Shown here one piece after another: positions 266-25,039 of a stretch of 64,000 nucleotides of DNA. Position 1 is the first letter of the stretch. Each line of letters starts with the position of its first letter. The DNA lies in the NCBI GenBank assembly GCA_964540395.1, contig CAZIME010000003.1, positions 11,800 to 75,799 of the forward strand. The letters are read 5' to 3'. The notes beneath the pieces are model-generated. The model did no database searches. It had not been told where the DNA came from and saw nothing but the letters and a program-made list of their open reading frames with translations. The stretch comes from an uncultured Bifidobacterium sp. (GTDB lineage Bacteria > Actinomycetota > Acidimicrobiia > Acidimicrobiales > Ilumatobacteraceae). A program made the position numbers and the translations under genes.

Positions 266-807
266 GACTGCTCCCCCGCTCCCGCACGACGACGTCGGGC
301 GAGCAGAACGGTTCCGACTACCGCCACGACGAGCAACACGGACGTGAGCTCGAATGCGACGACGTAATCTCCGAACACCGAACGGGCCAACTGCGCGATG
401 TTTGCGTCACCGTTCTCCGCATCGAGTTGGGTGGCAAGACCGCCTCCGCGCACGGCGAGAACGTCGTTGCCGCGGATCACCGCCGTGAGCAGGAGTGCGA
501 GTAGTCCCGCACCGACGACTGCGGCGAGCGAGCGTTGCGCGACGAGCGGTTCGGTCTTCAGATCCTCCGCCCGATCGACACCGAGGAGCATGATGACGAA
601 GAGAAAAAGCACGACGATTGCTCCGGCATACACGATCACCTGGACGGCGGCGAGGAAGTGCGCCTCCTGCGCGACGAAGAGGACCGCGACACCGAAAAGG
701 GTGAGAACGAGCGAGAGTGCGGCGTGAACGGGATTGCGCCGCACGATGACGCCGACGGCCCCGACGAGGCACATCGCCGCTGCGCAGAGGAAAACGAACA
801 GTTCCAT
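262..807 (-). CDS. nuoJ: NADH-quinone oxidoreductase subunit J
   Basis: 181 aa [37 protein letters not shown]..., with an ND6-like TM pattern. It sits between nuoI and nuoK. Confidence 0.92.
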
Positions 808-811
808 GCGG

Positions 812-2685: not shown

Positions 2686-5060
2686 CGAACGACCTCGATG
2701 GTGACATCCGTGACGTCGGCAGCATGGTCGATGAGTTCGCGCACGTCGGGGCCGTTCTGGTGCAGCGGCACCCATACGGTCCCGCGCGGCACGCTGACAT
2801 CCGCGTGTGCCGGGAGCGACACCGACGTCCGCTGACTGACGAGTCGAACGTGCCCGCCGGCCGAGACACCCGCGTGCACCATGTCGGCCGGGTTGAGGAA
2901 CGCACGGGACTCACCGACGAGCGGTGCGAGCGACGCGCTGCGCGCGGTACCGACGGCTCCGTCGTACAACTCACGCGACACGACGAGTCTGTGGTGGAAG
3001 CCGAGGCGCTGCGCCGGTGTCCGCGACGAGCGCGACATCGTGACGGGTTGCGGGTGCACGACGACGACACCCTCCCGGCGCACGGCGCGCGCATCGGCGG
3101 TGGGAGCGAAAGCGGGAACGCCGGCGACGAGGGCCGCATGCGCATCGGCGTAGGTCGTGACGCCGAGATCGACACCGAGCTGGGCCGCGAGCTCGACGGC
3201 AATCATCCAGTCGGGGCGGGACATGCCCGTCGCCGTCACCTTCTGGGCGACATCGCTGACGCGACCCTCGAGGTTCGTCGTCGTACCGACCTTCTCACCG
3301 AAAGCCGCGGCGGCGAGTACGACATCGGCGCGGGCCACCGACTCGGTGTGGTGCGTATCGACGGCGATGACGCTGCCGACCCGGGCGAAGGCACGACGCG
3401 CGAGGTCGGCATCCGGTACGTCGCTGAGCGGATCGGCTCCGAGCAACACGAGGCACTCGATGCGTCCCGCGGCGGCGGCCTCGAGCATGCCCACGGTGTC
3501 GAGGCCGTTACCCCGCGGCGCCAGTCCGGCGAGAACTGCGCCGCGTACGTTGGCGCGGCGCAACACGGGAAGGACACGCGCATCGGGAGCGGCGGCAAAC
3601 ACTTCGGCGAGACCGTGCAGGACGAACTCGGCCGACTCGGCGAGATTCGTGCGTCCGACGACCACGGTGACGGCACCACGACGCAACTGCTCCGCAACGG
3701 CGGGGGTGGCCACGAGATCGCGCACCACTCGCGATTGATCACCGGATTCGCACGTGACCGACTGCCATGCGTAGGGAGTGAGACCCGACGCACGTGTCGT
3801 CACTTCGATGATGCGGGCGCGACGCTTCTGCGCGGCGTCCCGCAGGCGCAGATAGAGAACCGGCGCTTCTTCCTTGAGGTCGGGTGCGAGGAGGATGACG
3901 GTCGGCGAAGATGCCGCGTCGGCGATCGTGGCCTGCGGGAGCGCAAACACCTCGTTGGGCAATCCGTCGCCCAGGTGTGCATCACGATTGGTGATGCCGA
4001 CCGCTTCGGCGAGTCGGGACCACATGTACGCGTCCTCGTTGGTACCGCGTGCGCCGCCGATGATGCCGATCGCGTTCGCGCCTTTGGACTGATCCGACAG
4101 GGTCGTTCGCAGGATCCGACCGGCGCGCTCGAGTGCCGTCGCCCAGTTCGTTGCGACGAGTGCGTCGCCTTCCCGCACGAGCGGCGCCGTGATCCGATCG
4201 TCAGATCGCAGAGCTTCGAAGTTGAAGCGTCCCTTGTCGCACAGCCATCCCCAGTTCACCGATTCGACGTCGACACCTTGGTAACGCACGATCTCGTCGC
4301 GGCTGCTCTGGACGACGACGCGACAACCAACGGAGCACGTCGTGCACGTGCTCTCCACCTGCTCGAGGTCCCACGGGCGGGCCTTGAAACGGTACGGGGT
4401 TGCGGTGAGCGCGCCGACCGGGCAGATCTGCACCGTGTTGCCGGAGAAGTACGAACTGAACGGCTCGTCCGGGAAGGTCATCACCTGCGTGTTGTTACCG
4501 CGACTGGTGAACGAAATGAGTGGATCACCGGCGACCTCGTCGGCGAATCGCGTGCACCGGTCGCAGAGGATGCAACGCTCACGGTCGAGGTACACGAGTT
4601 CGCTGATCGGGATCGGCTTCTCGTAGTGGCGCTTTTCCTCGACGAATCGACTCTCGCCGGGTCCGTGCGAGAAGGCCTGGTCCTGCAGCGGACACTCGCC
4701 TCCCTTGTCACACACCGGGCAGTCGAGCGGATGGTTGGCGAGCAGCAACTCGAGCACGCCTTCCTGCGCCCGCTTCACGGTGTCACTGTTCGTCGTCACC
4801 GCCTGGCCCTCGGCCACCGGTGTCATGCACGACACCACCATCATCTTTCCGCGCGGACCGTCGACCTCGACGAGACACTGTCGGCACATTCCGACGGGCG
4901 TCATGCGCGGGTGGTAACAGAAGTGGGGAACGTACGAGCCGGCGTCCTGACACGCATCGATGACAAGTTGACCGGGCTGCGCTTCGTGCGCCCGACCGTC
5001 GATCGTCACCGAGACCGTCGTCTTCGGTGCCGCCGTTTCCGCTGCGGATGTGTCAGCCAT
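2682..5060 (-). CDS. nuoG: NADH-quinone oxidoreductase subunit G
   Basis: Start at MADTSAAE (ATG 5058-5060). N-terminal Fe-S Cys clusters are present (CYHPRMTPVGMCRQC, HPLDCPVCDKGGEC, CILCDRCTRF), followed by a molybdopterin-oxidoreductase-like body. Confidence 0.93.
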   Translation of the reverse strand: MADTSAAETAAPKTTVSVTIDGRAHEAQPGQLVIDACQDAGSYVPHFCYHPRMTPVGMCRQCLVEVDGPRGKMMVVSCMTPVAEGQAVTTNSDTVKRAQEGVLELLLANHPLDCPVCDKGGECPLQDQAFSHGPGESRFVEEKRHYEKPIPISELVYLDRERCILCDRCTRFADEVAGDPLISFTSRGNNTQVMTFPDEPFSSYFSGNTVQICPVGALTATPYRFKARPWDLEQVESTCTTCSVGCRVVVQSSRDEIVRYQGVDVESVNWGWLCDKGRFNFEALRSDDRITAPLVREGDALVATNWATALERAGRILRTTLSDQSKGANAIGIIGGARGTNEDAYMWSRLAEAVGITNRDAHLGDGLPNEVFALPQATIADAASSPTVILLAPDLKEEAPVLYLRLRDAAQKRRARIIEVTTRASGLTPYAWQSVTCESGDQSRVVRDLVATPAVAEQLRRGAVTVVVGRTNLAESAEFVLHGLAEVFAAAPDARVLPVLRRANVRGAVLAGLAPRGNGLDTVGMLEAAAAGRIECLVLLGADPLSDVPDADLARRAFARVGSVIAVDTHHTESVARADVVLAAAAFGEKVGTTTNLEGRVSDVAQKVTATGMSRPDWMIAVELAAQLGVDLGVTTYADAHAALVAGVPAFAPTADARAVRREGVVVVHPQPVTMSRSSRTPAQRLGFHHRLVVSRELYDGAVGTARSASLAPLVGESRAFLNPADMVHAGVSAGGHVRLVSQRTSVSLPAHADVSVPRGTVWVPLHQNGPDVRELIDHAADVTDVTIEVVR

Positions 5061-6405
5061 GGCTCGCCACCGCATGTCCGAAGATCGGTTCGACGCCGGC
5101 GATGGCGTGACCGTGCTCGACGTAGTGCTCGAACTCGTGACGGAAGCGCCGCACCGCCGAGGCGATAGGCGACACGGCCGACGGACCGAGCGGGCAGATC
5201 GTCGTCTGCCTGGGCGGCCACGCGATGCCGGGGCTGATGCTCTCGCTGATTTCCATGAGAAGGTCGATGTCCTGCGCGCGACCGTGTCCGTCGAGCATGC
5301 GCTTCAGCACCTTCTCCAACCAGTTCGTTCCCTCGCGGCACGGCGTGCACTTGCCGCAGGATTCGCGCGCAAAGAAGCGCACGATGCGCCAGCATGCGGC
5401 GACCATGTCGGTGGTCTCGTCCATGACGACGATCGCACCCGATCCGAGCATCGATCCGGCCTTGTCGACCGTCGGCTTGTCGAGCGGCATGTCGAGGTGC
5501 TCATCGAAGAACCACATTGCCGATGCGCCGCCGGGAATGAAGGCCTTCACCCGTCGTCCGCCGCGTACGCCACCGCAGTACTCGTCCGCCTCGAACAACA
5601 TGCGGAAGGTCGTCACGCCGTTCGGCACCTCGAACACGCCGGGACGCTTGACGTGTCCGCTCACCGCGAACATGCGCATGCCCGTCGACGTCGGCGCACC
5701 GATCTCCTTGAACGATGCGCCGCCGCGACCGACGATCCACGGAACGTTCGAGAGCGTCTCGACGTTGTTCACGATCGTCGGCTGCATGTACAGACCCTTC
5801 ACCGCCGGGAAGAACGGGGGCTTCAGGCGCGGCATACCACGCTCCCCTTCGAGGCTCTCGATGAGTGCCGTTTCCTCGCCGACGATGTAGGCGCCCGCTC
5901 CCCATGTGAGCGTGATGTCGGCGGAAAAACCCGAGCCGCACACGTTGCGTCCGATCATTCCGTTCGCATACGCATCGTTGATCGCCGCCGCGAGACGCTC
6001 CTGCGCGAGTGCCATTTCGCCACGTACGTAGAGGAACGCGTGCGGTGCGTTGAGTGCGTAACAGGCGAGCATGATGCCCTCGATGAGCTGGTGCGGGTCG
6101 CGCTCCATGAGCAGGCGGTCCTTGTACGTGCCGGGTTCGCTCTCGTCACCGTTGATGACGAGGTAGCGCGGGTGCACACCGGCCGGGAGGAACCCCCACT
6201 TCGTTCCGGCGGGAAAACCTGCTCCGCCGCGGCCCTGGATCTCGGCTGCCTTCACTTCATCGTGTACCTGCTGCGGCGTCATCGCCGTGACGGCCTTACG
6301 CAGCGCTTCGTATCCGCCGGTGCGCACGTAACCGTCGTACGTGTGACCATCGGCCTGATCGAATCGGGTGGTGATGAGTCGGGGTCCGGTCGGTACTGCG
6401 CTCAT
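5053..6405 (-). CDS. nuoF: NADH-quinone oxidoreductase subunit F
   Basis: Track ORF trimmed to the ATG at 6403-6405 (MSAVPTGPRL...), with an ATGA overlap on the nuoE stop. It has the GRGGAGFPAGTKWGF motif and ESCGKCTPCREG. Confidence 0.95.
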   Translation of the reverse strand: MSAVPTGPRLITTRFDQADGHTYDGYVRTGGYEALRKAVTAMTPQQVHDEVKAAEIQGRGGAGFPAGTKWGFLPAGVHPRYLVINGDESEPGTYKDRLLMERDPHQLIEGIMLACYALNAPHAFLYVRGEMALAQERLAAAINDAYANGMIGRNVCGSGFSADITLTWGAGAYIVGEETALIESLEGERGMPRLKPPFFPAVKGLYMQPTIVNNVETLSNVPWIVGRGGASFKEIGAPTSTGMRMFAVSGHVKRPGVFEVPNGVTTFRMLFEADEYCGGVRGGRRVKAFIPGGASAMWFFDEHLDMPLDKPTVDKAGSMLGSGAIVVMDETTDMVAACWRIVRFFARESCGKCTPCREGTNWLEKVLKRMLDGHGRAQDIDLLMEISESISPGIAWPPRQTTICPLGPSAVSPIASAVRRFRHEFEHYVEHGHAIAGVEPIFGHAVASHG

Positions 6406-6986
6406 CGTTCGTCGGCCTTTCGCTGTGCCTCGACTCCCGCATTGCTCCACTTGTCCGTGGTGCGTTGACGCACCGTGGCGAGGGTGCCGTGTGCCGGCAC
6501 GTCGCTGCGGCGTCCGGACGCGAGATCGTCGATGAGTGCGTCGAAGGATTTGGGCGTCACCTTGTACTCGTAGCGGTAGTTCACCTGCAGTGCCGGTGCC
6601 TCCGTGCACGCGGCGATGCACTCGACGTCCTCGAGTGTGAACTTCTCGTCGTCGGTCGTGCTGCCGGCCTTGATCCCCAGTTTCTCCTCGGCATGGTGAA
6701 GGAGATCCCACGCGCCGAGCAGCTGGCACGAGATGTTCGTGCACACGTTGATGCAGTAGCGACCGACGGGTTGGAACTTGAACATCTCGTAGAAACTCGC
6801 CGTTCCGTACACATCCGCCGCCGTGGTGCCGACGAGTTCGGCGATGTGCACCATCGCGTCCTGGGTGACGTAGCCGTCCTGTTCCTGGGCGAGATGGAGC
6901 AGCGGAATGGTTGCGGACTTGCGGCGCGGAAAACGCGCGATGATCTCGTGTGCGATCTCGACGTTGGCCGGCGACAGACGACTCAT
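6402..6986 (-). CDS. nuoE: NADH-quinone oxidoreductase subunit E
   Basis: Trimmed to the ATG at 6984-6986 (MSRLSPANVEIAHEII...), with an ATGA overlap on the nuoD stop. The 2Fe-2S Cys pattern is NVCTNISC ... ECIAACTEAP. Confidence 0.93.
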   Translation of the reverse strand: MSRLSPANVEIAHEIIARFPRRKSATIPLLHLAQEQDGYVTQDAMVHIAELVGTTAADVYGTASFYEMFKFQPVGRYCINVCTNISCQLLGAWDLLHHAEEKLGIKAGSTTDDEKFTLEDVECIAACTEAPALQVNYRYEYKVTPKSFDALIDDLASGRRSDVPAHGTLATVRQRTTDKWSNAGVEAQRKADER

Positions 6987-8326
6987 CGGTCGACCTCGCC
7001 GAGCACGGGATCGATGGACGAGATGACTGCGACGGCGTCGGCGACCAGACCGCCGCGCATCATGTGCGGCAGGCACTGGACATTGACGAAGCTCGGCGCG
7101 CGCACGTGCATGCGGTACGGGGTCGACGATCCGTCGCTGGCGATGTAGCAACCGATCTCGCCGCGCGGGGACTCGATCGCCACGTACACCTCGCCCTCGG
7201 GAACCTTGAATCCCTCGGTGAAGATCTTGAAGTGGTGGATGAGAGCTTCCATCGACTCGTCGATGCGACCGCGCGGGGGCGGCGTCACCTTCTTGTTCTG
7301 GATGCGGTAGTTGCCTGCGGGCATCCGGTCGAGGATCTGGCGCACGATGCGCATGGATTCGCGGATCTCCTGCAGTCGAATGGCGTACCGGTCGTACGCA
7401 TCGCCGTGCACTCCGACAACGACGTCGAACTCGACGTCGTTGTAACGGAGGTACGGCACGTCCTTGCGCAGGTCCCACGCGATACCCGTCGAGCGCAGGA
7501 TCGGCCCCGTGGCGGCGAGGGCGACGGCCTCGTCCTGGGTGATCACACCGACGCCCTGGAGACGTTCGCGCCAGATCGGCTGACCCGTCATCAAGACTTC
7601 GTATTCCTCGAGTCGGGGCGGAATCTCGTCGAGCAGATGGAGCACGTCGTCGCGCCATCCCGCCGGCAGGTCGGCGGCGAGACCACCGGGACGGATGAAG
7701 TTGTGGTTCATCCGCAGTCCGGTCACCTTCTGGAAGAAGCGCAGCACCTGCTCGCGTTCGCGCCAGCCGTACAACATCATCGACACGGCACCGAGGTCCA
7801 TGCCGTTCGTCGCCATGAACAGGAGGTGACTGCTCATGCGGTTGAGCTCCGACAGCAGCATGCGCATCCACACGGCACGCTCGGGGATGTCACCGTCGAT
7901 GCCGAGCAGTTTCTCGGTCGCCATCGAGAACACGAGTTCGTTGTTCAGCGGCGAGAGATAGTCCATGCGCGTTACGTTCGTTCCGCCCTGCATGAACGTC
8001 AGCGACTCGCCCGTCTTTTCCATGCCGGTGTGCAGGTAACCGATGATCGGCTTGCAGCGCAGCACCGTCTCGCCCTGGAGTTCGAGCATGAGTCGCAACA
8101 CGCCGTGGGTACTCGGATGCTGAGGACCCATGTTGATGATCATCGTCTGGTCCTCATCGGGATCCGTCCCCACCGAGGTGAGTGCAGCTGCATCGGCTTC
8201 ACTCATCCGCAGAACCGCACCGGACTCGCGCATGAGTTCCTTGTGGCCGACGATCGATCGTGGCTGGAGTTCCTGAGCACCCTCGGAGGTACCCGCGGAA
8301 ACGATGCGCGGTTCGACGGTCGTCAC
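6983..8326 (-). CDS. nuoD: NADH-quinone oxidoreductase subunit D
   Basis: GTG at 8324-8326 (VTTVEPRIV...) overlaps the nuoC stop. It carries the MGPQHPSTHGVLRL signature. Confidence 0.93.
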   Translation of the reverse strand: MTTVEPRIVSAGTSEGAQELQPRSIVGHKELMRESGAVLRMSEADAAALTSVGTDPDEDQTMIINMGPQHPSTHGVLRLMLELQGETVLRCKPIIGYLHTGMEKTGESLTFMQGGTNVTRMDYLSPLNNELVFSMATEKLLGIDGDIPERAVWMRMLLSELNRMSSHLLFMATNGMDLGAVSMMLYGWREREQVLRFFQKVTGLRMNHNFIRPGGLAADLPAGWRDDVLHLLDEIPPRLEEYEVLMTGQPIWRERLQGVGVITQDEAVALAATGPILRSTGIAWDLRKDVPYLRYNDVEFDVVVGVHGDAYDRYAIRLQEIRESMRIVRQILDRMPAGNYRIQNKKVTPPPRGRIDESMEALIHHFKIFTEGFKVPEGEVYVAIESPRGEIGCYIASDGSSTPYRMHVRAPSFVNVQCLPHMMRGGLVADAVAVISSIDPVLGEVDR

Positions 8327-8820
8327 GACGCCGCTCCCTTGAACTGCACGGGAATCCGGCCTTGCGCGTAATCCTTGCGCAACGGATGCCCCTCCCAATC
8401 CTCGGGCATGAGGATTCGCGTGAGGTCGGGGTGTCCGTCGAAACGGATGCCGAACATGTCGTACACCTCGCGCTCCATCGCCTCGGTTGCGGGATAAAGA
8501 TCGAACAACGACGCAACCGTCTCGCCGTCGGCAACCTGGGTGCGTACCCGGACGCGGCGTTTGTGCTGCAGCGAAAGCAGGTTGACGACGACCTCGAATC
8601 GCTCGGCCGTCACACCGACGGGTAGCGACCGCTGCGGGTGAACGAGGTAATCGACCGCGGTGAGGTCGACGCACATCTGGTAGCCGTCCTCGTACAGCCC
8701 GCGACAAAGGTTGAGGTGCTCGGTACGTGCGGCGTGCACGACGTGCTGACCGAAGCGCGTTTCGCTCGGGCAACCGTGCACGAGCACAGGGCTCGCCTGC
8801 GTCGTCGCGTCGTCGGACAC
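8323..8820 (-). CDS. nuoC: NADH-quinone oxidoreductase subunit C
   Basis: GTG at 8818-8820 lies just after the nuoB stop. It has the 30-kDa subunit motif EREVYDMFGIRFDGHPDLTRILMPEDWEGHPLRKDY. The start is uncertain. Confidence 0.88.
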   Translation of the reverse strand: MSDDATTQASPVLVHGCPSETRFGQHVVHAARTEHLNLCRGLYEDGYQMCVDLTAVDYLVHPQRSLPVGVTAERFEVVVNLLSLQHKRRVRVRTQVADGETVASLFDLYPATEAMEREVYDMFGIRFDGHPDLTRILMPEDWEGHPLRKDYAQGRIPVQFKGAAS

Positions 8821-8821
8821 G

Positions 8822-9406
8822 TCAGCGGCCCTGCAATGCGACGGGCACGGTGAGACCAGCGGGCACCTCTTGAATGTGGACGTCGGCGCCCGCGCCGGTC
8901 GCTGCACGGCGACGCATGATCTCGCCGTCCTCGATGAGCTGGTGCAGGGTTTCGATCGCATGGATGAGGGTCTCCGGTGTCGGTGGACAACCCGGTGCGT
9001 ACACGTCGACGGGGACGATCTGATCGACGCCCTGCACGATGGCGTAGTTGTTGAACATTCCGCCGCTGCTCGCGCAGACGCCCATAGAGATGACCCACTT
9101 CGGTTCCATCATCTGGTCGTACACCTGTCGCAGTACCGGGGCCATCTTCTGGCTGACGCGGCCGGCAACGATCATGATGTCGGCCTGGCGCGGTGACGCA
9201 CGGAACACTTCCATGCCGAAGCGGGCGATGTCGTAGTGCGGTGCCCCGGTGCCCATCATCTCGATGGCGCAACACGCAAGCCCGAACGTCGCACCCCAGC
9301 TTGAACGCGAACGCGACCACTTCACGAGATCCTCGATGCGACCGGTGAGGAAGTTGTGGCGCATCCCTCCGAGACCCTCGTCGGCAATGTCGCGCAGGAC
9401 GCTCAC
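8822..9406 (-). CDS. nuoB: NADH-quinone oxidoreductase subunit B
   Basis: GTG at 9404-9406 overlaps the nuoA stop; an alternative ATG ends at 9364. Motifs are [20 protein letters not shown] and APGCPP. Confidence 0.92.
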
Positions 9407-9873
9407 CGTGAACCCACCAGTTCGGAGTTGCGCTCGCGACCTTCGAGACCCACGATTCGTACGTTGCAACCGGGCTCGGCAACGACTCCGACGTCGACGA
9501 GAGGGGCATCCTTCTTTATCGGACCCCAATCGAGTGCACCACGCGCCACGACGTACACGAACGCAACGAAGAACACCGCGCTGAACGCGACGATCTCCCA
9601 GAAGACGAATGCACCGAGTTCACGTTGCGAAACGGCGTACGGGTAGGCAAAGACGATCTCGATGTCGAACATGATGAACAACATCGCAACGACGTAGAAC
9701 GACACCGGGAAGCGCTCGGGGGCCTCGCGACTCGGCACGATGCCGCATTCGTACGGCGCGAGCTTTGCGCTGTTCGGCCGACGCGGCGCGAGGAGCTTCG
9801 ATGCGACGATGCTGATTGCGCCGAATCCGATGGCAAGCACCATCAGCACGATGATCGGAAGATACTGACCCAC
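9403..9873 (-). CDS. nuoA: NADH-quinone oxidoreductase subunit A (with C-terminal extension)
   Basis: 156 aa, ND3-like (PYECG, FDIEIVF). About 35 extra hydrophilic residues follow the last TM. Confidence 0.9.
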
Positions 9874-10725: not shown

Positions 10726-11799
10726 TTAGAGACCTCGCACGTAGTCAACGATTGCCGCGATCTGATCCTCGGTGAGCATGCCGCCGAATCCGGGCATGCG
10801 TCCGCCACCCTGACCTTGTTCGCCGTAACGCTTGCCGTACTCACTGCCGGCGGTGATGAACGCGATCATGTCGGCTCTGTTCGGGAACTGACGGATCGTC
10901 GAACCGCCCGTGAGGTTCGGTCCGAATGCACCGCCACCGGTGATCTGCGGTTCACCGTATGACCAGCCCTTGGTGTGGCAGCGGGCGCACGAGTACTGGC
11001 CGCCGCCGAGATCGAGGTTGAACAATGCTTCACCGAGGGATCCGTACGTGCCGGCCGCGACGAGGCGTTCGGCTTCTTCCTGGATCTGATCCTTCGTCGA
11101 CGCGGGCAGCGTTCCCCCGGCACACGTGCGCGGATCGGCGTCCGCCACGTCGCAGTTCTCGCGCGGCACCTGGATCGACTTCATGTATTCGATGATCGTC
11201 TGGATCTGTTGCTCGTTCAGCGGGCCACCACCGACGAGACCCCACGCCGACATCGGCGAGAACGGACGTCCGTAGTTGAGGATGAAGCGAACTTCTTCCT
11301 CGTCGAATCGCGAAAACACCGTGTTCAGGGCCGGGGCCTTCCAGTTCACCGACTTCACTTCCCCGGTCGTCGGGTCGGTGACGGCGTACGAGGCGACGCC
11401 ACCGGCACCGCTCATGCCGCCGTGACATCCCGCGCAATTGAAACCACCGTCGGCGGTCGAGGCAAAGAGTCCCGAACCCCAACGCTCGAACTTGTGCTGG
11501 AAGTCCTTCTCTGCACCGACCTGTCGACCCGGTTCGAGGATCCAGTACAGCGGCAGCGCGATCGTGAGTACGGCGAGGAAACCGAGACCGAGCAACTGGG
11601 TGCGCTCGAGCTTCTTTCCCTCGAGGATTTCGTCGTCGTAGTACGGCTTGCGGTTCGCCGCGAGCTCGATCTCCGAACCGATTTCCTTGCGGCTCGAACG
11701 GATGTTGAAGATGCCGTAGAGCGCCCAGCCGCCGAGAGCGACGAAGAGGACGATCCACGCGAGCGTGGTCGTGACGGCGGCGAGCAATGGTGCGTTCAT
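10726..11799 (-). CDS. Membrane-anchored dihaem cytochrome c
   Basis: Track ORF trimmed to the ATG at 11797-11799 (MNAPLLAAVTTTLAWIVLFVALGG..., a TM anchor). It has two haem c motifs, CAGCH and CARCH. Confidence 0.88.
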   Translation of the reverse strand: MNAPLLAAVTTTLAWIVLFVALGGWALYGIFNIRSSRKEIGSEIELAANRKPYYDDEILEGKKLERTQLLGLGFLAVLTIALPLYWILEPGRQVGAEKDFQHKFERWGSGLFASTADGGFNCAGCHGGMSGAGGVASYAVTDPTTGEVKSVNWKAPALNTVFSRFDEEEVRFILNYGRPFSPMSAWGLVGGGPLNEQQIQTIIEYMKSIQVPRENCDVADADPRTCAGGTLPASTKDQIQEEAERLVAAGTYGSLGEALFNLDLGGGQYSCARCHTKGWSYGEPQITGGGAFGPNLTGGSTIRQFPNRADMIAFITAGSEYGKRYGEQGQGGGRMPGFGGMLTEDQIAAIVDYVRGL

Positions 11800-11809
11800 G
11801 CCCGTGACC

Positions 11810-12649
11810 TCAGTGCGCGCCCGCGGCACCGACGCAATGCGGTCCCTCGGCTTCCTGTCCGGTGGTGTTCGTGCCGATCGGCGGGCCACCGAAAACGGTT
11901 CCCGTATCGATGATCACCTGGCCGTTGACGACGGAGATGCCGAAGTGGTCCATACCTCGCGGCGCCGGGCCGGCCTTCTTCTCACCGACGCGGTTGTACT
12001 GCGAGCCGTGGCACGGGCATTCGAACCACTGCGATGTCTCGCACACCGGCACGCGGCAACCGAGGTGCGGGCACTTCTGGTACGACGCGACGACTCCCGC
12101 CTGCATTCCGGCGAACACGGGAGCCTGACTGCCGTACGCAGCTTCGGCCTTTGCGAGCGATTCCTTCGGGTATTCCGACACCCACGAGCGCGCTTCGGGA
12201 AGGTACAAGAAACCCTTGTTCGAACGGATCGCGGCGATGACGTCGTCGATCTTGCCCGCATTGATCTTCGATCCGAATCCACCCGACGCACCTCGCCAGA
12301 GGAACGCGACGACCGCGGCACCGAAACCGCCGAGACCTGCGCTCATCAGGGTCACCGTCGCACGGTTGAAGAACTGACGACGCGACACGCCGATGACTTC
12401 GGGATCCGGCGGCGACCACGGGGCAACCTCAGCAGCCTTGGGAACCGCCACCGCCGTCGAGGTTGCGCGAGCGTTCACCGCAGCTGCTTCCGCCGCGCGT
12501 GACGCCTTGCGCGACACGCGATCACGCAACTTCGTCTCACGCGAAAGCACGCCCACTCGGTCGCGACGACGGGTCGCGGTGACGGCGATGACGACGCCGA
12601 GCACGAAGAGCACGGCGACTGCGATGGAAATGATGGTGATGCTGCTCAT
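11810..12649 (-). CDS. Rieske 2Fe-2S protein of a cytochrome bc/b6-type complex
   Basis: 279 aa with an N-terminal TM. Rieske boxes are CPHLGC and CPCHGS. Confidence 0.9.
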   Translation of the reverse strand: MSSITIISIAVAVLFVLGVVIAVTATRRRDRVGVLSRETKLRDRVSRKASRAAEAAAVNARATSTAVAVPKAAEVAPWSPPDPEVIGVSRRQFFNRATVTLMSAGLGGFGAAVVAFLWRGASGGFGSKINAGKIDDVIAAIRSNKGFLYLPEARSWVSEYPKESLAKAEAAYGSQAPVFAGMQAGVVASYQKCPHLGCRVPVCETSQWFECPCHGSQYNRVGEKKAGPAPRGMDHFGISVVNGQVIIDTGTVFGGPPIGTNTTGQEAEGPHCVGAAGAH

Positions 12650-12661
12650 GGTGACCGCCGA

Positions 12662-13396
12662 TCAGAGCTCGAAGAAGATTCCGTCACGCCACGGGAACGT
12701 GAAGTTGAAGCCGGGACCGCGGAAGAACGAGCCAATGATGACGAGGATCGCCCAGAACATCATGTGAACCGTCATCAGACTCGTGATGAACTTGCGGTCT
12801 TCGGGTTTGTTCGACGGGTTGCGATCGAGGTACGGCGCGAACATCAACGCGATGAGTCCCATTCCCGGGATGGTGACGCCCGCGATCATCGGATGGAACA
12901 TCGTGAGCAGTTCCTGCAGCCCGAGGAAGTACCACGGGGCCTTCGACGGGTTCGGGGTCGCATTGAAGTTCGCTGCCTGCAGCAACGGCGCGTTGACGAA
13001 CCACGAGAACATGAACGTGAATGCGAGGCACGCGAGCGCGGCGACGAACTCGACGGACAGCAGGTGCGGCCACGTGTGCACCTTGTCGACCGGCACGGCC
13101 TTCACGTCCTGGATCGATCCCGACTTAACAACGGTGAGCAGGCGCTGGGTGTGACCTCCGGGGCCGGCACCCATCGGTACGCCACCGCCGACGGGGGCAG
13201 CAACGACCGGAGCCTTCGGTGCGTCGGCAACGGCGACGCCGCCGGCACGGGCAGCCTTCGAACGATCGAGGAGTTCCTGCGGGATGCGCGACGCGCCGGC
13301 ACTCTGCGCCGACGACGCGTCGTCACCGCCGGTCGATGCGGCCTTTTCGCGGGCCGCTTGGGCGCGCTTGAGAAGGTGTTCGGGGATCTCCGTCAT
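12662..13396 (-). CDS. Cytochrome b C-terminal half (subunit IV / PetD-like) with a long N-terminal extension
   Basis: 244 aa with three TM helices. The Qo-region motif is KAPWYFLGLQELL (PEWY-equivalent). About 100 hydrophilic residues precede the first TM. Confidence 0.85.
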   Translation of the reverse strand: MTEIPEHLLKRAQAAREKAASTGGDDASSAQSAGASRIPQELLDRSKAARAGGVAVADAPKAPVVAAPVGGGVPMGAGPGGHTQRLLTVVKSGSIQDVKAVPVDKVHTWPHLLSVEFVAALACLAFTFMFSWFVNAPLLQAANFNATPNPSKAPWYFLGLQELLTMFHPMIAGVTIPGMGLIALMFAPYLDRNPSNKPEDRKFITSLMTVHMMFWAILVIIGSFFRGPGFNFTFPWRDGIFFEL

Positions 13397-13420
13397 GGTC
13401 GTTGGGCTCCTTTCACCGGC

Positions 13421-14206
13421 TCACAGCGGTCCGGAAATTCCGCCGTCCTTGCGGACGCGCCAGAAGTGAATGGCGAGGAAGATCACCGTGACGAACGGGA
13501 ACAAGATGACGTGGAGTACGTACCAACGCAACAGCGTTTCCGGTCCGATCTCGGTTCCGCCGAGGAGCACGAACCGCACCTGCGATCCGATCACCGGTGA
13601 GTAGCCCATCATGTTCGTTCCCACTGCGACTGCCCACAGTGCGAGCTGGTCCCACGGCAACAGGTAGCCGGTGAACGACAGCAGCAAGGTGAGCGTGAGG
13701 AGGATGACGCCGACGACCCAGTTGAACTCGCGGGGTGCCTTGTATGCGCCGTGGTAGAAGACGCGCGCCATGTGGAGGAACACCGAGAGGACCATGAGGT
13801 GCGCGCCCCAGCGGTGCATGTTGCGCACCATGAGGCCGAAGGTCACCGACGTGTGCAACGACTGGATGTCGTCCCACGCGTTGGCGGCGGTCGGACGGTA
13901 GAAGAACATCAGGAAAATGCCCGTAATCGTGAGCAAAATGAACAGGAAGAAGGAAAGCCCGCCGAGACACAGCGTGTAGCTCACCTTCACCGCGTGTCGC
14001 TTCACCTTCACCGGGTGGAGGTGGTACAGCACCGAGTTCATGACGACGTACGAACGGTTGCGCGGTGAATCGGTGTATCCCTTGCGGAAGATCGAACCGG
14101 GGCGGAAGATGGAGTTCCACACCTGGCTGCCCTGCAGGGACTCGTTCACCTTGGCAATGCGCTCCTTCAGCGAAGGGCGGGGCTTTTCTTCAACGACGCT
14201 GGCCAT
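13421..14206 (-). CDS. Cytochrome b6-like protein (N-terminal four-helix half of cytochrome b)
   Basis: 261 aa. The haem ligand pairs are H130-x13-H144 and H231-x14-H246. It also has YTLCLGG (Cys80). Confidence 0.9.
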   Translation of the reverse strand: MASVVEEKPRPSLKERIAKVNESLQGSQVWNSIFRPGSIFRKGYTDSPRNRSYVVMNSVLYHLHPVKVKRHAVKVSYTLCLGGLSFFLFILLTITGIFLMFFYRPTAANAWDDIQSLHTSVTFGLMVRNMHRWGAHLMVLSVFLHMARVFYHGAYKAPREFNWVVGVILLTLTLLLSFTGYLLPWDQLALWAVAVGTNMMGYSPVIGSQVRFVLLGGTEIGPETLLRWYVLHVILFPFVTVIFLAIHFWRVRKDGGISGPL

Positions 14207-14217
14207 GAATCGCTCCT

Positions 14218-14631
14218 TTAGAACCGCATCCCGTAGGCGTAACCGTGATTGTTCGTGCGCGCGTGGGGGTCACCGTTTGCCGGTGCCACACCGACCTTGC
14301 CCAACACGATGACGCCGGTCGGGCAACGGTCGACGCACAGTGCGCATCGCGTGCAGATGTCGTCGTCGATGACGAACACGACGTGGTCGGAGGGATCGGC
14401 GCCGGGCATCTCGGTGCCGGTCGATTCGACGACGGCTCCCGGGTTCACCATGTGGATGCACTTCCACGGGCAGATGTCGACGCAGCCCTCGCACATGATG
14501 CATTCGCTCTGATCGATGTGGATGAACTGCTTCGGCTTCACTGCCTTGCTGAGGTAGTCGGCATCGACCTCGACGAGGTGGTACTCGTCGGTGAACGGCA
14601 TCATCGGCGGATTGGCATCAGTGCGAGTCAC
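14218..14631 (-). CDS. 2[4Fe-4S] ferredoxin-like protein
   Basis: 137 aa with no TM or signal peptide. Motifs are CIMCEGCVDICP and CTRCALCVDRCP. Confidence 0.85.
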   Translation of the reverse strand: MTRTDANPPMMPFTDEYHLVEVDADYLSKAVKPKQFIHIDQSECIMCEGCVDICPWKCIHMVNPGAVVESTGTEMPGADPSDHVVFVIDDDICTRCALCVDRCPTGVIVLGKVGVAPANGDPHARTNNHGYAYGMRF

Positions 14632-21930: not shown

Positions 21931-22398
21931 CTACCGAGACGGCCGACGTAGCCCGGGAAACGCGAGATCAACGAGCGTGGCGAAGTGTTGCTCGATGGTC
22001 GCGTACACCGATCCGATGATGCGGTCGAGCTCCGCGTCGTCGAGCGACTCGAGCAACAGCTCACCGTACAGATGCAGTGCGTCCTCCGCACCGATGCCGA
22101 AGTGGTGCCCGACGAGACGCTCGTTGCGCCGCAAGCAGTAGCGCATCAATTCCTCGGAGTGCATCGGCGGGGTTGGAAGCACGTACGTCTCGTGGCGAAG
22201 GGTGCGCTGCCCCAGGAGGAACCACACCGTCATTGTTTCCTTCGCCTCCCCGCGCAGGCGCACGAACCAGCGGTCCGGTTCGTCGGTGGAGCGACCGGCT
22301 GCGAGAACGCTCGACCATTCACCTCGCACGCGGGCGCACCATTCGTCGATCCGCCGCTCGAGGACGGCCCGCGACGAATCGTCGAACAGGTCGGTCAT
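21931..22398 (-). CDS. YbjN-like domain protein (conserved partner of mshA)
   Basis: Trimmed to the ATG ending at 22398 (MTDLFDDSSRAVLERRIDEW...). It lies immediately downstream of mshA, as in other actinobacteria. Confidence 0.65.
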   Translation of the reverse strand: MTDLFDDSSRAVLERRIDEWCARVRGEWSSVLAAGRSTDEPDRWFVRLRGEAKETMTVWFLLGQRTLRHETYVLPTPPMHSEELMRYCLRRNERLVGHHFGIGAEDALHLYGELLLESLDDAELDRIIGSVYATIEQHFATLVDLAFPGLRRPSR

Positions 22399-22405
22399 CG
22401 CCTGT

Positions 22406-23614
22406 TCACGAGCACGTGACGGGTGTGCGTGCTGACACCTCGGCGTAGATCCTGCGGAGTCGCATCGCAGCGGAGTTCCAGGTGTAGCGCCTGCTGCGAT
22501 CGTGAGCGGCAGCACCCATGTCGCGCGCGACGGTGGGTGAATCGATGACCCGGCGCAGGGCGTGGGCGAACGAGTTCACCTCGCGGTCCGTGACGAGCAC
22601 ACCCGTCGCACCGTCGTCGACGAGAGACAAGAGTCCGCCGACAGCACTGGCGACGACCGGTCGACCGCTCGCCATCGCCTCGAGGGCGACGAGACCAAAA
22701 CTCTCGCTGCGCGACGGCACCACGACGACGTCGGCTGCACGGAAGTAGGTGGAGAGCAGGTGGTGCGGCTGCGGGTCGACGTGCCGCACGCGTGCCGACA
22801 TGCCCAGTCGCTCGACGAGTGAACGAACGGCGGTCACTTCGCGCGCACCGTCCGGACCGCTCGCACCGCCGACGACGACGAGTTGGACGTCGCTGCGGCC
22901 GAGCGCCGCAACAGCGCGGATGGCGAGGTCGACCCCCTTCAGCGGCTGGATCCGACCGACGAAGAGAACGACGGGGGAATCACCCAGACCAATCGCCGCG
23001 CGCGCACCGCGCACGTCACCCGGGGAGAAAACGGCATGTTCGACACCCGGTGCGACGACGTCGGCGGCTCCGGTCCACTGCGGGTACAACGTTCGTAGCT
23101 GATTGCGTTCTTCTGCGCACGACACGACGACCGTGTCGGAGCAACCCATCACGGCCACCTCGCCCGCATCGCGCTCGGGTGACTCACCGTCACCGAACAG
23201 CGACTTCACCCGGGCAAGCGTGTGGAACGTCGTCACCAGCGGCAGACCGAGATCGTGCTTCAGGGCGTGCCCGGAGATGCCGGACAGCCAATAATTGGCG
23301 TGGATGACGTGCGGCTCGCTGCGCAACAGATGGTGCCGAACCTCGGCAGTGAAGACATCGACGACGTTCGGCAAGTCTTCCTTTTCGACGTCGTAGTCCC
23401 CTGCTTCGACGTGGACGAGCGTGTTGTTCGGTTCGCGCACGATGACCGAGGGCAACCCCGGTTTCCACGCACGGGTGTACGTCGTCACCTCGACCCCGAG
23501 ACGGGCGAGCGCAGATGCAATCTCGCGCACGTAGACGTTCATGCCGCCGCCGTCACCGACACCGGGCTGGGCCAACGGCGAGGTGTGCATCGAAAGAAGA
23601 GCTACGCGTTGCAT
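22406..23614 (-). CDS. mshA: D-inositol-3-phosphate glycosyltransferase (mycothiol biosynthesis)
   Basis: 402 aa. The N-terminus MQRVALLSMHTSPLAQPGVGDGGGMNVYV is typical of MshA; GT4 fold. Confidence 0.88.
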   Translation of the reverse strand: MQRVALLSMHTSPLAQPGVGDGGGMNVYVREIASALARLGVEVTTYTRAWKPGLPSVIVREPNNTLVHVEAGDYDVEKEDLPNVVDVFTAEVRHHLLRSEPHVIHANYWLSGISGHALKHDLGLPLVTTFHTLARVKSLFGDGESPERDAGEVAVMGCSDTVVVSCAEERNQLRTLYPQWTGAADVVAPGVEHAVFSPGDVRGARAAIGLGDSPVVLFVGRIQPLKGVDLAIRAVAALGRSDVQLVVVGGASGPDGAREVTAVRSLVERLGMSARVRHVDPQPHHLLSTYFRAADVVVVPSRSESFGLVALEAMASGRPVVASAVGGLLSLVDDGATGVLVTDREVNSFAHALRRVIDSPTVARDMGAAAHDRSRRYTWNSAAMRLRRIYAEVSARTPVTCS

Positions 23615-23671
23615 CGTGCAACGAGCAACCTATCGGCGGACATCCCTCGCGAATCCGCCGCAGCGGGCGGA

Positions 23672-24388
23672 TCAGTCGTCGAGCAGCTCGTCGACGGCGG
23701 AATCGTGCGTCTTGTAACGCTTCACCAACTCCGCGGACAGCGCGTCGATCGCGGCGAACAACTCGCGGCGCTGACGGGACACCTCTGCCTCGAAGCTCGA
23801 CAGTTCGTCGATGCACACGGTGAGTTCGTCGTCATCGAGGCCGTGCACCGATCCGAATCCGACGCGGTCACACAGCGCATCGAGCTGTGCGACCAGTGGA
23901 TCGTCGATGCTCGGTTCGGTGTCGCGCGGCGGCCGTTGTGAGCCTCCCGCGCTTTCCGCAGCGAATACTCGCGTGATCTCACCCGACACGTCGATGTCGC
24001 CGCCCCGATTCTCCGCGCGTCGCTCTCTTTCGGCGCGCGCAATATCCAGTCGACCCTGCACCATTCGCCGCACGTACGACACCGAGTCCTCGCGCTGCTG
24101 GAGATCGTTGCGTGTCGTGCGCAAATCGGCGAGGGACAACGTGGTCGGATCGCTTCCACCCGACACCGGCGGCAGGATCGCAACTTCGTCGAGCGCACCG
24201 ACGACACAATGTTTCTCCGCAGGTTCACCGTTCACCCAAATGCGACTCATCGACAGGACGTTCTCGAACGCCGGGCCGCAGCGGCCGATCACGTGTGCGA
24301 GCACCTCGGCGACGGTTTCACCCGGAACGTCGTCGCTCGCGCGACCCGCGACGTCGCGTGCCTGGGCGAAATACAGCACGCGCGGCAT
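23672..24388 (-). CDS. Fusion protein: N-terminal MoaD/ThiS-type beta-grasp (ends ...PPVSGG at residues 77-78) joined to a C-terminal RsiG-like domain
   Basis: Single 238-codon ORF. Residues 1-78 resemble MoaD. Residues 85-238 contain EDSVSYVRRMVQGRLD, an exact E-x3-S-x2-R-x3-Q-x3-D, plus a second degenerate copy EAEVSRQRRELFAAID and the tail RYKTHDSAVDELLDD. Confidence 0.75.
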   Translation of the reverse strand: MPRVLYFAQARDVAGRASDDVPGETVAEVLAHVIGRCGPAFENVLSMSRIWVNGEPAEKHCVVGALDEVAILPPVSGGSDPTTLSLADLRTTRNDLQQREDSVSYVRRMVQGRLDIARAERERRAENRGGDIDVSGEITRVFAAESAGGSQRPPRDTEPSIDDPLVAQLDALCDRVGFGSVHGLDDDELTVCIDELSSFEAEVSRQRRELFAAIDALSAELVKRYKTHDSAVDELLDD

Positions 24389-24424: not shown

Positions 24425-25039
24425 GTGCACGGCCAGGCTTCACCGACGATCACCCGCGTGCTCGTGCTCCGTCACGGCGAATCCGAGTGGAACGTTGCCG
24501 GTCGCTGGCAGGGTCGCGCCGACGTACCCCTCACGGAGCGTGGACGTCGACAAGCTCTGCTCGCGGCCGCGCGTCTCGATCCCGTCGACGCGATCGTCGC
24601 GAGCACGTTGCAGCGCGCGTCCAGAACTGCCGAGCTCATCGGTGCCGCACTCGGTGCGACGACTCCGGTGCTCGACGCTCGCCTTGTTGAGACCGATGTC
24701 GGCCCTTGGGAGGGTTTGACGCGCGACGATATCGACGCGCAATGGCCCGGGTACCTCGATTCGATGCGCATTCCGCAGGGATTCGAACCGACGCACTCCG
24801 TCGTCGGGCGCGTCCACGAATCGTTCGTCGACCTTGCACGCCGCCATCCCGGTTCGACTCTGCTCGTCATCAGCCATAGCGGCGTCATTCGCACCTTGCG
24901 TCGGCACCACGGAGTCGCCGATAAGCGCTTGCACAATCTCGAAGGTTGCTGGTTCGACGTCTCCGCCGAGGGAGTCCTCTCGGTCGGTTCGTTCGTGTCA
25001 CCGCTCGCCACGACGGGGGGCGCAACCGAGTCGCTCTGA
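24425..25039 (+). CDS. Histidine phosphatase (phosphoglycerate mutase-like) family protein
   Basis: Track ORF trimmed to the in-frame GTG at 24425; an alternative GTG is at 24458. It has the catalytic motif VLVLRHGESEWN and a later ISHSGVI. Confidence 0.8.
   Translation: MHGQASPTITRVLVLRHGESEWNVAGRWQGRADVPLTERGRRQALLAAARLDPVDAIVASTLQRASRTAELIGAALGATTPVLDARLVETDVGPWEGLTRDDIDAQWPGYLDSMRIPQGFEPTHSVVGRVHESFVDLARRHPGSTLLVISHSGVIRTLRRHHGVADKRLHNLEGCWFDVSAEGVLSVGSFVSPLATTGGATESL

Follow-up and report, generated by a model that had tools for sequence, protein, structure and literature searches.

A MoaD-type sulfur-carrier domain fused to an RsiG-like protein in Ilumatobacteraceae, a possible polyprotein cut after its internal di-glycine

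MoaD is the small, sulfur-carrying subunit of molybdopterin synthase, and its adenylation and thiocarboxylation need a free Gly-Gly carboxylate. In the MoaD-MoaE fusion MoaX of M. tuberculosis, cleavage between Gly82 and Ser83 is required for activity (PMC4326299). The Deinococcus protease DRJAMM likewise cleaves a MoaD-MoaE fusion, and in archaea JAMM proteases process linear fusions irrespective of which protein follows (PMC8832034). RsiG is an anti-sigma factor that depends on c-di-GMP and acts on WhiG-type sigma-28. Its c-di-GMP motif has been defined and the Gln of motif 2 shown to stack on guanine (PMC7005675). According to the literature on RsiG evolution, RsiG always co-occurs with WhiG and is found in three of four Acidimicrobiales species. 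The twin-motif (monomeric) type of RsiG has been reported for Acidimicrobiales and the protein described here is of this type.

In the window, by which we mean the whole 64-kb stretch of DNA analysed, a single open reading frame joins these two proteins. We know of no described RsiG with a MoaD domain. A literature search for RsiG together with MoaD returned only irrelevant papers, and the two main papers on RsiG evolution are without any mention of a link to MoaD, ThiS or molybdopterin. The features of the fused gene, with the evidence for each, are as follows.

23672–24388, minus strand: fused moaD-rsiG open reading frame, 238 residues plus stop codon, ATG start (ORF list, sequence, Pfam)
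24155–24388, minus strand: MoaD-type β-grasp, residues 1–78, ending LPPVSGG (Pfam ThiS, AlphaFold2, Foldseek)
24155–24160, minus strand: internal di-glycine Gly77-Gly78, with the predicted cut between Gly78 and Ser79 (conservation, AlphaFold2, likeness to MoaX)
24134–24154, minus strand: linker SDPTTLS, residues 79–85 (alignment of fused and separate proteins, junction DNA, AlphaFold2)
23675–24142, minus strand: RsiG domain of the twin-motif type, residues 83–238 (alignment with 6pfj_T, Foldseek, Pfam)
24044–24091, minus strand: c-di-GMP motif 1, E100-x3-S104-x2-R107-x3-Q111-x3-D115, on helix 86–125 (sequence)
23744–23791, minus strand: c-di-GMP motif 2, E200-x3-S204-x2-R207-x3-F211-x3-D215, on helix 186–237 (sequence; aromatic in place of Q/H)

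The recomputed positions of the reading frame, the di-glycine and both motifs all agree with those in an earlier note on this DNA, and the sequence is identical. That note had also read the protein as a MoaD/ThiS β-grasp joined to RsiG, and the Pfam ThiS and RsiG-like matches bear out both assignments, with scores well above what chance would give. The residues spanning the junction are ...LPPVSGGSDPTTL..., with VSGG to the left of the predicted cut and SDPTTL to the right. When fused and separate proteins are aligned, linker residues 79–85 are the counterpart of the N-terminal tail of stand-alone RsiG. The AlphaFold2 model of the fused protein has a pLDDT of 82.8 and a pTM of 0.57. Its pLDDT falls below 50 at residues 76–78 and the first RsiG helix begins at residue 86, such that the GG lies in the sole low-confidence stretch between two confident domains. 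The model places the GG in a disordered linker.

The C-terminal part matches the Pfam RsiG-like family (PF22802) in two stretches with an E-value of 1.2e-29 and 102 bits against a cutoff of 27, which places it in the RsiG family as had been proposed. Residues 83–236 align with residues 24–175 of S. venezuelae RsiG (AmfC; 6PFJ/6PFV; PMC7005675, PMC8325347) with an E-value of 1.9e-15 (PDB chain 6pfj_T), so that nearly the whole crystallised chain is covered. In Foldseek the AlphaFold2 model matches the RsiG structures 6pfv and 6pfj with a TM score of 0.66–0.74 relative to the target. The predicted fold, like that of S. venezuelae RsiG, consists of two long antiparallel motif-bearing helices with a helical linker; of the two, only the fused protein has the N-terminal MoaD domain.

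The earlier reading of the c-di-GMP motifs also holds: motif 1 is exact, and motif 2 keeps E, S, R and D with F in place of Q. The S, R, Q and D of motif 1 are invariant in both homologue alignments (A1 and A2). Across 85 acidimicrobial sequences the E, S, R and D of motif 2 are likewise invariant, while 84 of the sequences have F at the fourth position and the remaining one has Y. All the motif residues that contact base and phosphate are conserved, with F or Y for Gln at the fourth position of motif 2. The published motif 2 has Q or H at the stacking position and described RsiGs have Q, whereas residue 211 here is F. On these alignments F211 is a lineage-wide state and no defect of the window copy. 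As the Gln of motif 2 stacks on guanine (PMC7005675), it is plausible that an aromatic residue at 211 is equivalent.

The N-terminal part matches Pfam ThiS (PF02597) over residues 4–78, covering positions 1–76 of the 76-position profile with an E-value of 3.8e-10 and 40.6 bits against a cutoff of 22.5. On the NCBIfam moaD model TIGR01682 its score is 46.8 bits, under the equivalog cutoff of 66.15. The MoaD domain of a moaA-moaD~moaB-moaE operon falls equally short at 46.1 bits, so that the low score is a trait of the lineage. The pLDDT of this half is approximately 90, and Foldseek matches it to MoaD, SAMP1 and CysO structures with TM scores of 0.69–0.81 (0.77–0.81 for the MoaD structures 1fm0_D, 6jbz_B and 2q5w_D). 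The MoaD signature, FA.AR..AG followed by DEVA.LPPVSGG, is kept in the fused lineages. Canonical MoaD has a C-terminal GG with a free carboxylate, whereas the GG here is internal, at residues 77–78 of 238, so that a C-terminal free carboxylate would arise only after cleavage.

A presumed partner for a released MoaD domain lies elsewhere in the window.

49533–50033, minus strand: orphan moaE, whose product would presumably pair with the MoaD domain after its release (Pfam MoaE, E 3.7e-35; NCBIfam MoaE)

This gene is approximately 25 kb from the fused reading frame and not in one operon with it. Its neighbours are a small membrane ORF with mreB to one side and Zincin_2 to the other. The Pfam match and inspection of the flanks confirm the claim of the earlier note that moaE stands there without a neighbouring moaD, and moaE is arranged in the same way, without an adjacent moaD, in two relatives (L092 and L093). 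We considered whether a moaD might be hidden beside moaE, but the small ORF between moaE and mreB, in the window and in both relatives, encodes a membrane peptide and not a β-grasp. The 64-kb window gave no further MoaD/ThiS-like ORF that ends in GG.

An identical protein of 238 residues is encoded by contigs of two independent sequencing runs (L006 and L007), which excludes the assembly error that the earlier note had allowed for, and a fused copy of 92% identity occurs in a Lake Mendota MAG (L008). ThiS and RsiG-like Pfam domains occur together in 31 fused protein clusters of 41–91% identity drawn from JGI, ENA, NCBI and Logan. To place the fusion among its relatives we searched by tblastn with the complete fused sequence and used the best 80 matches among at least 587 relatives, a set which is biased to loci with both parts. 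Among these best 80, the same fusion is found in 15 other species-level Ilumatobacteraceae MAGs. The tree contains 16 fused sequences, namely these 15 genome loci and the window; the fused clade spans about 50% sequence divergence. The fused two-part protein is real, conserved and stably inherited in its clade.

A moaD-like ORF ending P-P-[VI]-S-G-G lies directly upstream of rsiG in all of the best 80 of at least 587 relatives. Within this set the two are fused in 15 loci and separate in about 64. The separate genes overlap at ATGA or GTGA or are divided by spacers of 0–20 nt, and the separate moaD-like genes carry 0, 1, 2, 3, 6 or 12–15 unconserved residues after the GG. The earlier note had taken a stop codon directly after GG in orthologues as the mark of two ordinary genes. 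Such a stop just after GG is indeed found in about 64 of the best 80 of at least 587, and two ordinary genes are accordingly the ancestral state; the fusion is nonetheless real in its clade. The GG itself is present in all 31 fused clusters and in all 80 loci (the best 80 of at least 587), its invariance in the locus set being partly by construction, since an SGG pattern served to parse the loci; every locus matched that pattern. The alignments from the protein searches, which also show the GG, are independent of that pattern. The ratio of MoaD to RsiG identity is 1.10 in fused and 1.08 in separate lineages and the same residues are conserved, so that the MoaD part is under equal constraint whether fused or separate.

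In the sister clade (L033 and L034) the junction reads GGx-NNN-stop-ATG in one frame, and a single point mutation of the stop codon would therefore fuse the genes. These comparisons show that the fused protein is derived and arose from a pair of adjacent genes coupled in translation, the moaD stop codon having been lost in an ancestor with a GG-X-stop-ATG junction in one frame. An internal restart for RsiG in the fused reading frame is unlikely, given that the old ATG is gone and the junction has no conserved start codon. The RsiG fusion arose at least three independent times, with P0028 and P0029/P0030 nesting among unfused lineages, and P0222 and P0229 are RsiG fusions with different linkers. 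This MoaD family has three different fusion partners, each joined at GG-[A/S/T], namely RsiG, a polytopic membrane protein and MoaB. The MoaB fusion sits inside the moaA-moaD~moaB-moaE operon. In one relative (L091) the polytopic membrane protein is a separate downstream gene, and two membrane-protein genes lie between the moaD-like gene and rsiG.

The best reading of these data, and one to which we would give an even chance, is that the fused product is a polyprotein which is cut behind Gly78 to give MoaD and RsiG. A peptidase recognising the β-grasp and the di-glycine would cut between Gly78 and Ser79. MoaD would be released with a free Gly-Gly carboxylate, to be adenylated, thiocarboxylated and used with the orphan MoaE. 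RsiG would be released with a near-native N-terminus, beginning SDPTTLSLADLR; its motif 1 (Q111) and motif 2 (with F211 taking the stacking role of Gln) would together hold a c-di-GMP dimer, and it would sequester a WhiG-type sigma factor (sigma-28). On this proposal the two halves would be functionally unrelated and the fusion would be tolerated because trimming of MoaD at its C-terminus was already present in these bacteria. The variable tails after GG follow the pattern of ubiquitin-like precursors that need trimming, though the short tails of the unfused genes might instead be mere by-products of the overlapping start and stop codons.

The likeness to MoaX and to D. radiodurans DR2607 (PMC4326299, PMC8832034) is close: in each an N-terminal MoaD ends in an internal ...PPVSGG with a second protein after it, and with MoaX, which is also actinobacterial, the GG/S junction is shared as well. 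Unlike in those proteins, the partner is the signalling protein RsiG and not MoaE or any Moco enzyme, and cleavage of the window protein is predicted. Eukaryotic fusions of ubiquitin to ribosomal proteins (UBA52, RPS27A) and JAMM-cut archaeal SAMP fusions offer a further parallel. There too a β-grasp with a GG heads an unrelated protein, tails or partners past the GG are variable, and recognition is expected to be through the β-grasp and not the partner. The window protein carries a bacterial sulfur carrier and not a protein modifier, however, and this analogy is functional only. The T. thermophilus 'MoaD related protein' (1V8C) also has an N-terminal MoaD-like β-grasp and a second domain (Foldseek E 2.5e-4), although its C-terminal domain is unrelated to RsiG.

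Alternatively the protein may be an uncleaved two-domain regulator in which the β-grasp serves RsiG as a module for input or interaction. By docking on MoeB/MoeZ or MoaE, for example, or by sensing the status of sulfur or Moco, it might modulate the sequestration of WhiG. The earlier note had set a ubiquitin-like precursor cut after GG against such a regulatory module, and on balance we infer that the precursor is the better supported of the two. The adjacency and translational coupling of moaD-like gene and rsiG in all of the best 80 of at least 587 loci, together with at least three fusions, a 'Rosetta stone' signature of functional linkage, is also what would be expected from a true functional partnership. 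The linker of just about seven residues and the existence of a MoaD-related two-domain protein in the PDB (1v8c) would also fit an uncleaved protein, as would the failure to find a processing protease nearby in the 64-kb window and the fetched loci. Pfam scans of about 55 ORFs of the window, which are nearly all of those picked by a crude caller, gave no JAMM/MPN, MoeB/ThiF or GGDEF gene and no sigma-factor gene. A crude regular expression for the JAMM motif, H-x-H-x(6-8)-S-x2-D, run on the window and the fetched loci, gave two implausible matches only. Of the companion genes named in the earlier note, moaE is present in the 64-kb window, while whiG, JAMM/MPN, MoeB and another moaD were not found in it.

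Against an uncleaved regulator, the same MoaD family is equally fused to the unrelated membrane protein and MoaB, Streptomyces rsiG has no moaD neighbour, and in L091 the two genes are parted by the two membrane-protein genes. An interaction module would need neither an invariant di-glycine nor the full MoaD signature. In addition, the pTM of 0.57 and the disordered junction of the AlphaFold2 model give no confident interdomain interface. We therefore regard an uncleaved regulator as rather unlikely. A broader form of the idea is that in the Acidimicrobiia the moaD-like gene heading the rsiG operon belongs specifically to the RsiG-WhiG-c-di-GMP switch and is not a housekeeping Moco carrier, which we think improbable. 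It seems similarly improbable that such a component, as a sulfur-carrier or ubiquitin-like input in uncleaved, thiocarboxylated or conjugated form, couples sulfur, Moco or redox status to the release of a sigma-28-type factor. If so, the conserved coupling and repeated fusion would be the result of a MoaD-RsiG partnership.

The fusion could also be a neutral or slightly harmful accident that has left MoaD as an inert appendage, with only RsiG mattering and Moco either supplied through another moaD or dispensable. A single point mutation suffices for fusion and moaE lies 25 kb off, outside the operon of the fused gene; a second canonical moaD elsewhere in the genome, if present, would free the fused domain from having to work as a sulfur carrier. 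An inert appendage would be expected to decay or vanish, however, and the fused clade comprises 15 species-level genomes besides the window, at about 50% divergence, in which MoaD, set against RsiG, shows the same degree of conservation as in unfused lineages, with its GG and signature intact. No other MoaD-like ORF is found in the 64-kb window, nor beside moaE in the relatives, and an accident is accordingly improbable.

A further reading has the MoaD-like domain as a ubiquitin-like modifier of the SAMP/TtuB type, with RsiG/WhiG as its target or regulator, making a conjugation-controlled sigma switch. The MoaD half matches SAMP1 structures and scores 27.9 bits on the SAMP1 model, and tails past the GG are typical of modifier precursors. 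The MoaD model scores above SAMP1, though, an E1-like or JAMM gene was found in neither the operon nor the 64-kb window, the orphan moaE needs a MoaD, and the literature searched holds no link between RsiG and conjugation, all of which make a modifier very hard to credit. An assembly or sequencing artefact, with a stop lost or a frameshift where two genes meet, might be suggested by the two separate genes in most relatives among the best 80 of at least 587 and by an apparent frameshift in the moaD-like gene of L091, but it is rejected as practically negligible given the agreement of two independent runs, the 92%-identical copy from a separate MAG, the 31 fused clusters from JGI, ENA, NCBI and Logan, and the single clade of fused sequences whose junctions have diverged yet are all in frame.

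If the polyprotein is cleaved after Gly78, an actinobacterial MoaD would behave like a ubiquitin precursor. It could then head essentially any protein, be it RsiG, a membrane protein, MoaB or MoaE, and be freed by a peptidase that recognises the β-grasp and GG. No protease is known to us for the cleavage of mycobacterial MoaX, and the natural MoaD-X fusions and GG-tail variants across many genomes offer a comparative handle on it through genes that co-occur with them. If the protein is instead uncleaved, it would represent the first case of an RsiG that carries an additional sensory domain. The data add two points for c-di-GMP biology. In abundant freshwater actinobacteria of the Ilumatobacteraceae type (among the best 80 of at least 587), rsiG is invariably expressed along with MoaD, either in a 1:1 ratio or within a single chain. 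Across the lineage, moreover, the second RsiG motif has an aromatic residue at its stacking position.

The fused gene is surrounded by the following genes.

22406–23614, minus strand: MshA-like GT4 glycosyltransferase gene, downstream in the same direction (Pfam GT4 families)
21931–22515, minus strand: YbjN-domain gene (Pfam YbjN; bounds are those of the listed ORF, the true start probably being later)
24449–25039, plus strand: histidine phosphatase (His_Phos_1) gene, the divergent upstream neighbour (Pfam, E 2.1e-41; start approximate)

The MshA-like gene matches the NCBIfam mycothiol_MshA model over its full length with 377 bits, where the cutoff is 462, and it comes next after rsiG in nearly all related loci. 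In Streptomyces, by contrast, rsiG is next to dtd and an eis-like gene. We considered whether the link between moaD and rsiG might reach Streptomyces and rejected this, as S. venezuelae rsiG is in a different locus without moaD. Loss of an HTH_31 gene downstream of rsiG showed no correlation with the fusion. The divergent His_Phos_1 neighbour is also present in L001, L003 and L091, and the synteny of the YbjN gene is the same in L001 and L003.

Matches that appeared to give a third architecture, with ThiS only and a length of about 250 residues, proved to be over-extended calls of stand-alone moaD-like ORFs running antisense to the phosphatase gene. Stand-alone moaD-like genes of 80 residues are missed or mis-called in public MAG annotations.

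The earlier note had described a single ORF joining a complete MoaD-type domain to an RsiG-like part. This is indeed what is present; the residues it transcribed are exact, and its coordinates for the Gly-Gly and both c-di-GMP motifs are correct.

23672..24388, minus strand: fused moaD-rsiG ORF, ATG start, 238 residues

ILPPVSGG closes residues 1–78 and, without a stop codon, the frame runs on for a further 160 residues. Pfam finds both domains, ThiS/MoaD at full length over residues 4–78 (profile positions 1–76 of 76, E 3.8e-10) and RsiG-like PF22802 in two stretches (E 1.2e-29), and moaD is the top-ranked NCBIfam model. In a sequence search of solved structures residues 3–78 match S. aureus MoaD, while residues 83–236 match nearly the whole chain of S. 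venezuelae RsiG (6pfj_T, E 1.9e-15). The AlphaFold2 model, built with 76 homologues (mean pLDDT 82.8), has a confident beta-grasp at residues 1–72 and RsiG helices at 86–125, 134–148, 164–183 and 186–237; the only interdomain residues of low confidence are 76–78 (Ser-Gly-Gly). Foldseek with this model ranks RsiG-WhiG-c-di-GMP complexes first, followed by MoaD, SAMP1 and CysO.

That the fusion is an artefact, the assembly error against which the earlier note had advised a check, can be dismissed with near certainty: the identical protein was called on contigs of two different sequencing runs, a Lake Mendota Ilumatobacteraceae MAG (L008) holds a 92% identical fused copy, and 31 protein clusters, at 41–91% identity, carry both Pfam domains. 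Ser or Ala follows LPP[VI]SGG in all 31. Such proteins are present in the databases as 'molybdopterin converting factor small subunit'. A further related protein, P0042 (278 aa), in which a PP2C-like N-terminus abruptly meets mid-RsiG sequence, appears to come from a chimeric contig and not to be a genuine architecture.

The closest stand-alone RsiG homologues are 160–170 aa long, 46–53% identical and lie in the same neighbourhood as the fused ORF: a divergent histidine phosphatase, rsiG, often an HTH_31 gene, an MshA-like glycosyltransferase, YbjN and ProC. Directly upstream of the stand-alone rsiG is an 80-aa MoaD-like ORF ending ...LPPVSGGAC or ...VSGGCR, as at two loci where annotators did not call it:

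L001 5749–5991: stand-alone moaD-like gene upstream of rsiG
L003 5762–6004: stand-alone moaD-like gene upstream of rsiG

In public MAG annotations this gene is either uncalled or replaced by an over-extended ORF of 165–255 aa antisense to the phosphatase gene (proteins P0069–P0078), so that existing annotation hides the moaD-rsiG pairing. An interposed HTH_31 (XRE-type) gene separates rsiG from the mshA-like gene at 12 of 14 fused loci and at 33 of 61 separate ones (e.g. L003 6490–6840); it is absent in the window and in L008, and the gap from rsiG to the mshA-like gene is 57 nt (window 23615–23671).

A species-level scan, with one genome per species, gave at least 587 relatives, the best 80 of which all belong to Ilumatobacteraceae or other acidimicrobial freshwater MAGs. 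The moaD-like ORF immediately precedes rsiG in 80/80 of these loci, which are the top matches to the full fused query, a choice biased towards loci holding both parts, and which were parsed with patterns including SGG and part of motif 1. Fifteen of the loci have the two genes fused. In the others the moaD-like stop lies 0, 1, 2, 3, 6 or 12–15 residues past the Gly-Gly, and the two ordinary genes that the earlier note had weighed against a fusion are thus found in most orthologous loci, though not in those 15. At the DNA level the separate pairs mostly show an ATGA or GTGA overlap or a gap of 0–20 nt, and the GGN-GGN glycine codons of moaD occupy the ribosome-binding-site position for rsiG.

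When the concatenated proteins were placed on a neighbour-joining tree, the fused genome copies grouped together as one clade. The group next to this clade, its sister (L033–L035), has GGx-NNN-TAG/TGA-ATG in one frame, as inspected in the DNA of L033 and L034, so that just one stop-codon substitution would yield the fused ORF. The origin of the fusion is mundane. Two other cases, P0028 and P0029/P0030, have their nearest relatives in unfused lineages and therefore represent separate fusion events; P0031, like the representatives P0222 and P0229, has a different, longer linker, and these may be further ones.

The MoaD family concerned (signature LFA.AREAAG...DEVAVLPPVSGG) includes members ending exactly at GG (78 aa) and long-tailed members of 103–120 aa. 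In P0270, P0274, P0316 and P0362 it is joined to a polytopic membrane domain through GG-A or GG-T, and in other genomes it is joined to MoaB at GG-S, within a moaA-moaD~moaB-moaE operon. In a more distant actinobacterium (L091) the homologue of the membrane domain is a separate gene after the moaD-like one.

L091 gene order: phosphatase / moaD-like, membrane protein, second membrane protein, rsiG, HTH_31
L091 4067–5199: moaD-like and membrane protein region, the membrane gene lying between moaD-like and rsiG
L088 5810–6559: MoaD~MoaB/MogA-type fusion (P0088), ...LPPVSGG-S junction, between moaA and moaE in a Moco operon

Since one MoaD family is joined to RsiG, a membrane protein and MoaB, it fuses with whichever gene happens to come next. 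With its internal GG, the MoaD of P0088 would require cleavage for function. P0080 also belongs to the membrane protein fusions, and the polytopic membrane protein in these has no Pfam family. The L091 moaD-like ORF (4067–4564, on a 2.4-Mb contig) has a frame shift just before ...DEVAVLPPVSGG, so that it is a pseudogene unless the shift is an indel from sequencing.

Motif 1 of the RsiG half is exact. For motif 2 (window 23744–23791) the replacement of Gln by Phe reported in the earlier note holds across the lineage: in 85 acidimicrobial sequences E, S, R and D are invariant while the fourth position is Phe in 84 and Tyr in one. Described RsiGs have the Gln form, whereas in Acidimicrobiia the motif is E-x3-S-x2-R-x3-[F/Y]-x3-D and the published motif does not apply literally. 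Crystallography shows the equivalent glutamines stacked on rotated guanines, and His can take their place (PMC7005675), so an aromatic residue is a plausible equivalent, and the conserved Phe/Tyr may functionally replace Gln in this predicted c-di-GMP motif. RsiG with twin motifs was reported in three of four Acidimicrobiales species, and RsiG is always accompanied by WhiG (PMC8325347). The Streptomyces rsiG lies at a different locus without moaD, and none of the papers found links RsiG to MoaD.

The MoaD half scores 46.8 bits on the NCBIfam moaD model (cutoff 66). Since the MoaD of a Moco operon scores 46.1 bits, this is a lineage trait rather than a loss of identity. As the earlier note had stated, moaE is 25 kb from the fused ORF with no moaD beside it.

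49533–50033, minus strand: moaE, between a small membrane ORF plus mreB and a divergent zincin-like hydrolase
50089–51237, plus strand: zincin-like metallopeptidase (Pfam Zincin_2, NCBIfam TIGR03624 'putative hydrolase')

The order moaE-small membrane ORF-mreB recurs in relatives, where a zincin-like hydrolase is encoded no more than a few kb away and moaD was never seen beside moaE. All MoaE homologues among the matches listed are single-domain, and a C-terminal GG motif of MoaD/ThiS-like type occurs in none of the other ORFs of the 64-kb window.

Adenylation and thiocarboxylation of MoaD require a free Gly-Gly carboxylate, a point established with the E. coli protein and with MoaX. The latter is a MoaD-MoaE fusion of M. 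tuberculosis that needs proteolysis between Gly82 and Ser83, by an enzyme yet to be identified, in order to be active (PMC4326299). Its GG/S junction is like that of the fused ORF. Deinococcus DRJAMM cleaves its own MoaD-MoaE fusion, and archaeal JAMMs cleave linear fusions whatever the partner (PMC8832034). We give an even chance to processing of the fused protein between Gly78 and Ser79 into MoaD and RsiG, which fits the GG/S junction, the disordered linker, the invariant GG, the variable GG tails in relatives and the partner-independent fusion. The released MoaD would serve MoaE, and the cut would also free a near-native RsiG. Among about 55 ORFs of the 64-kb window scanned with Pfam, none was a JAMM, MoeB or whiG-type gene as suggested in the earlier note, nor any other sigma-factor gene, and the protease therefore remains hypothetical. 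The Zincin_2 protein, or the PDZ/trypsin-like protease of locus L092, is a speculative candidate for a GG-directed peptidase. Both L092 and L093 also have a Zincin_2 gene at most a few kb from moaE; in L092 the protease gene is one of those between the two.

Chief among the alternatives is a regulator that stays uncleaved and whose beta-grasp modulates RsiG; the conserved moaD-rsiG coupling and the repetition of the fusion favour it, though we consider it unlikely. It is more doubtful still that the MoaD half is an inert appendage; the MoaD/RsiG identity ratio is 1.10 in fused and 1.08 in separate lineages, and the same signature residues are retained. A SAMP-like modifier seems very improbable.

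The families of both halves are already known, as is cleavage of MoaD-X fusions at GG. In the literature searched we found no MoaD-RsiG combination, conserved Acidimicrobiia moaD-rsiG operon, variable GG tails or Phe/Tyr variant of motif 2. With its predicted cleavage, the fusion is an elegant experiment of nature on how bacteria may process ubiquitin-like proteins, and it might lead to the protease of MoaX.

No GGDEF or EAL genes were seen in the window, which also has ordinary respiratory and phosphate genes and a single nucleotide-cyclase-like gene:

262–9529 and 10726–14631: NADH dehydrogenase (nuo) genes and Rieske/cytochrome b/cytochrome c cluster
51234–58151: phosphate/polyphosphate block with OmpR-type response regulator, PAS histidine kinase, PhoU, polyphosphate kinase and Ppx/GppA
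60775–61326, plus strand: small ORF, 183 aa, with a weak adenylate/guanylate cyclase domain match (E 1.4e-6)
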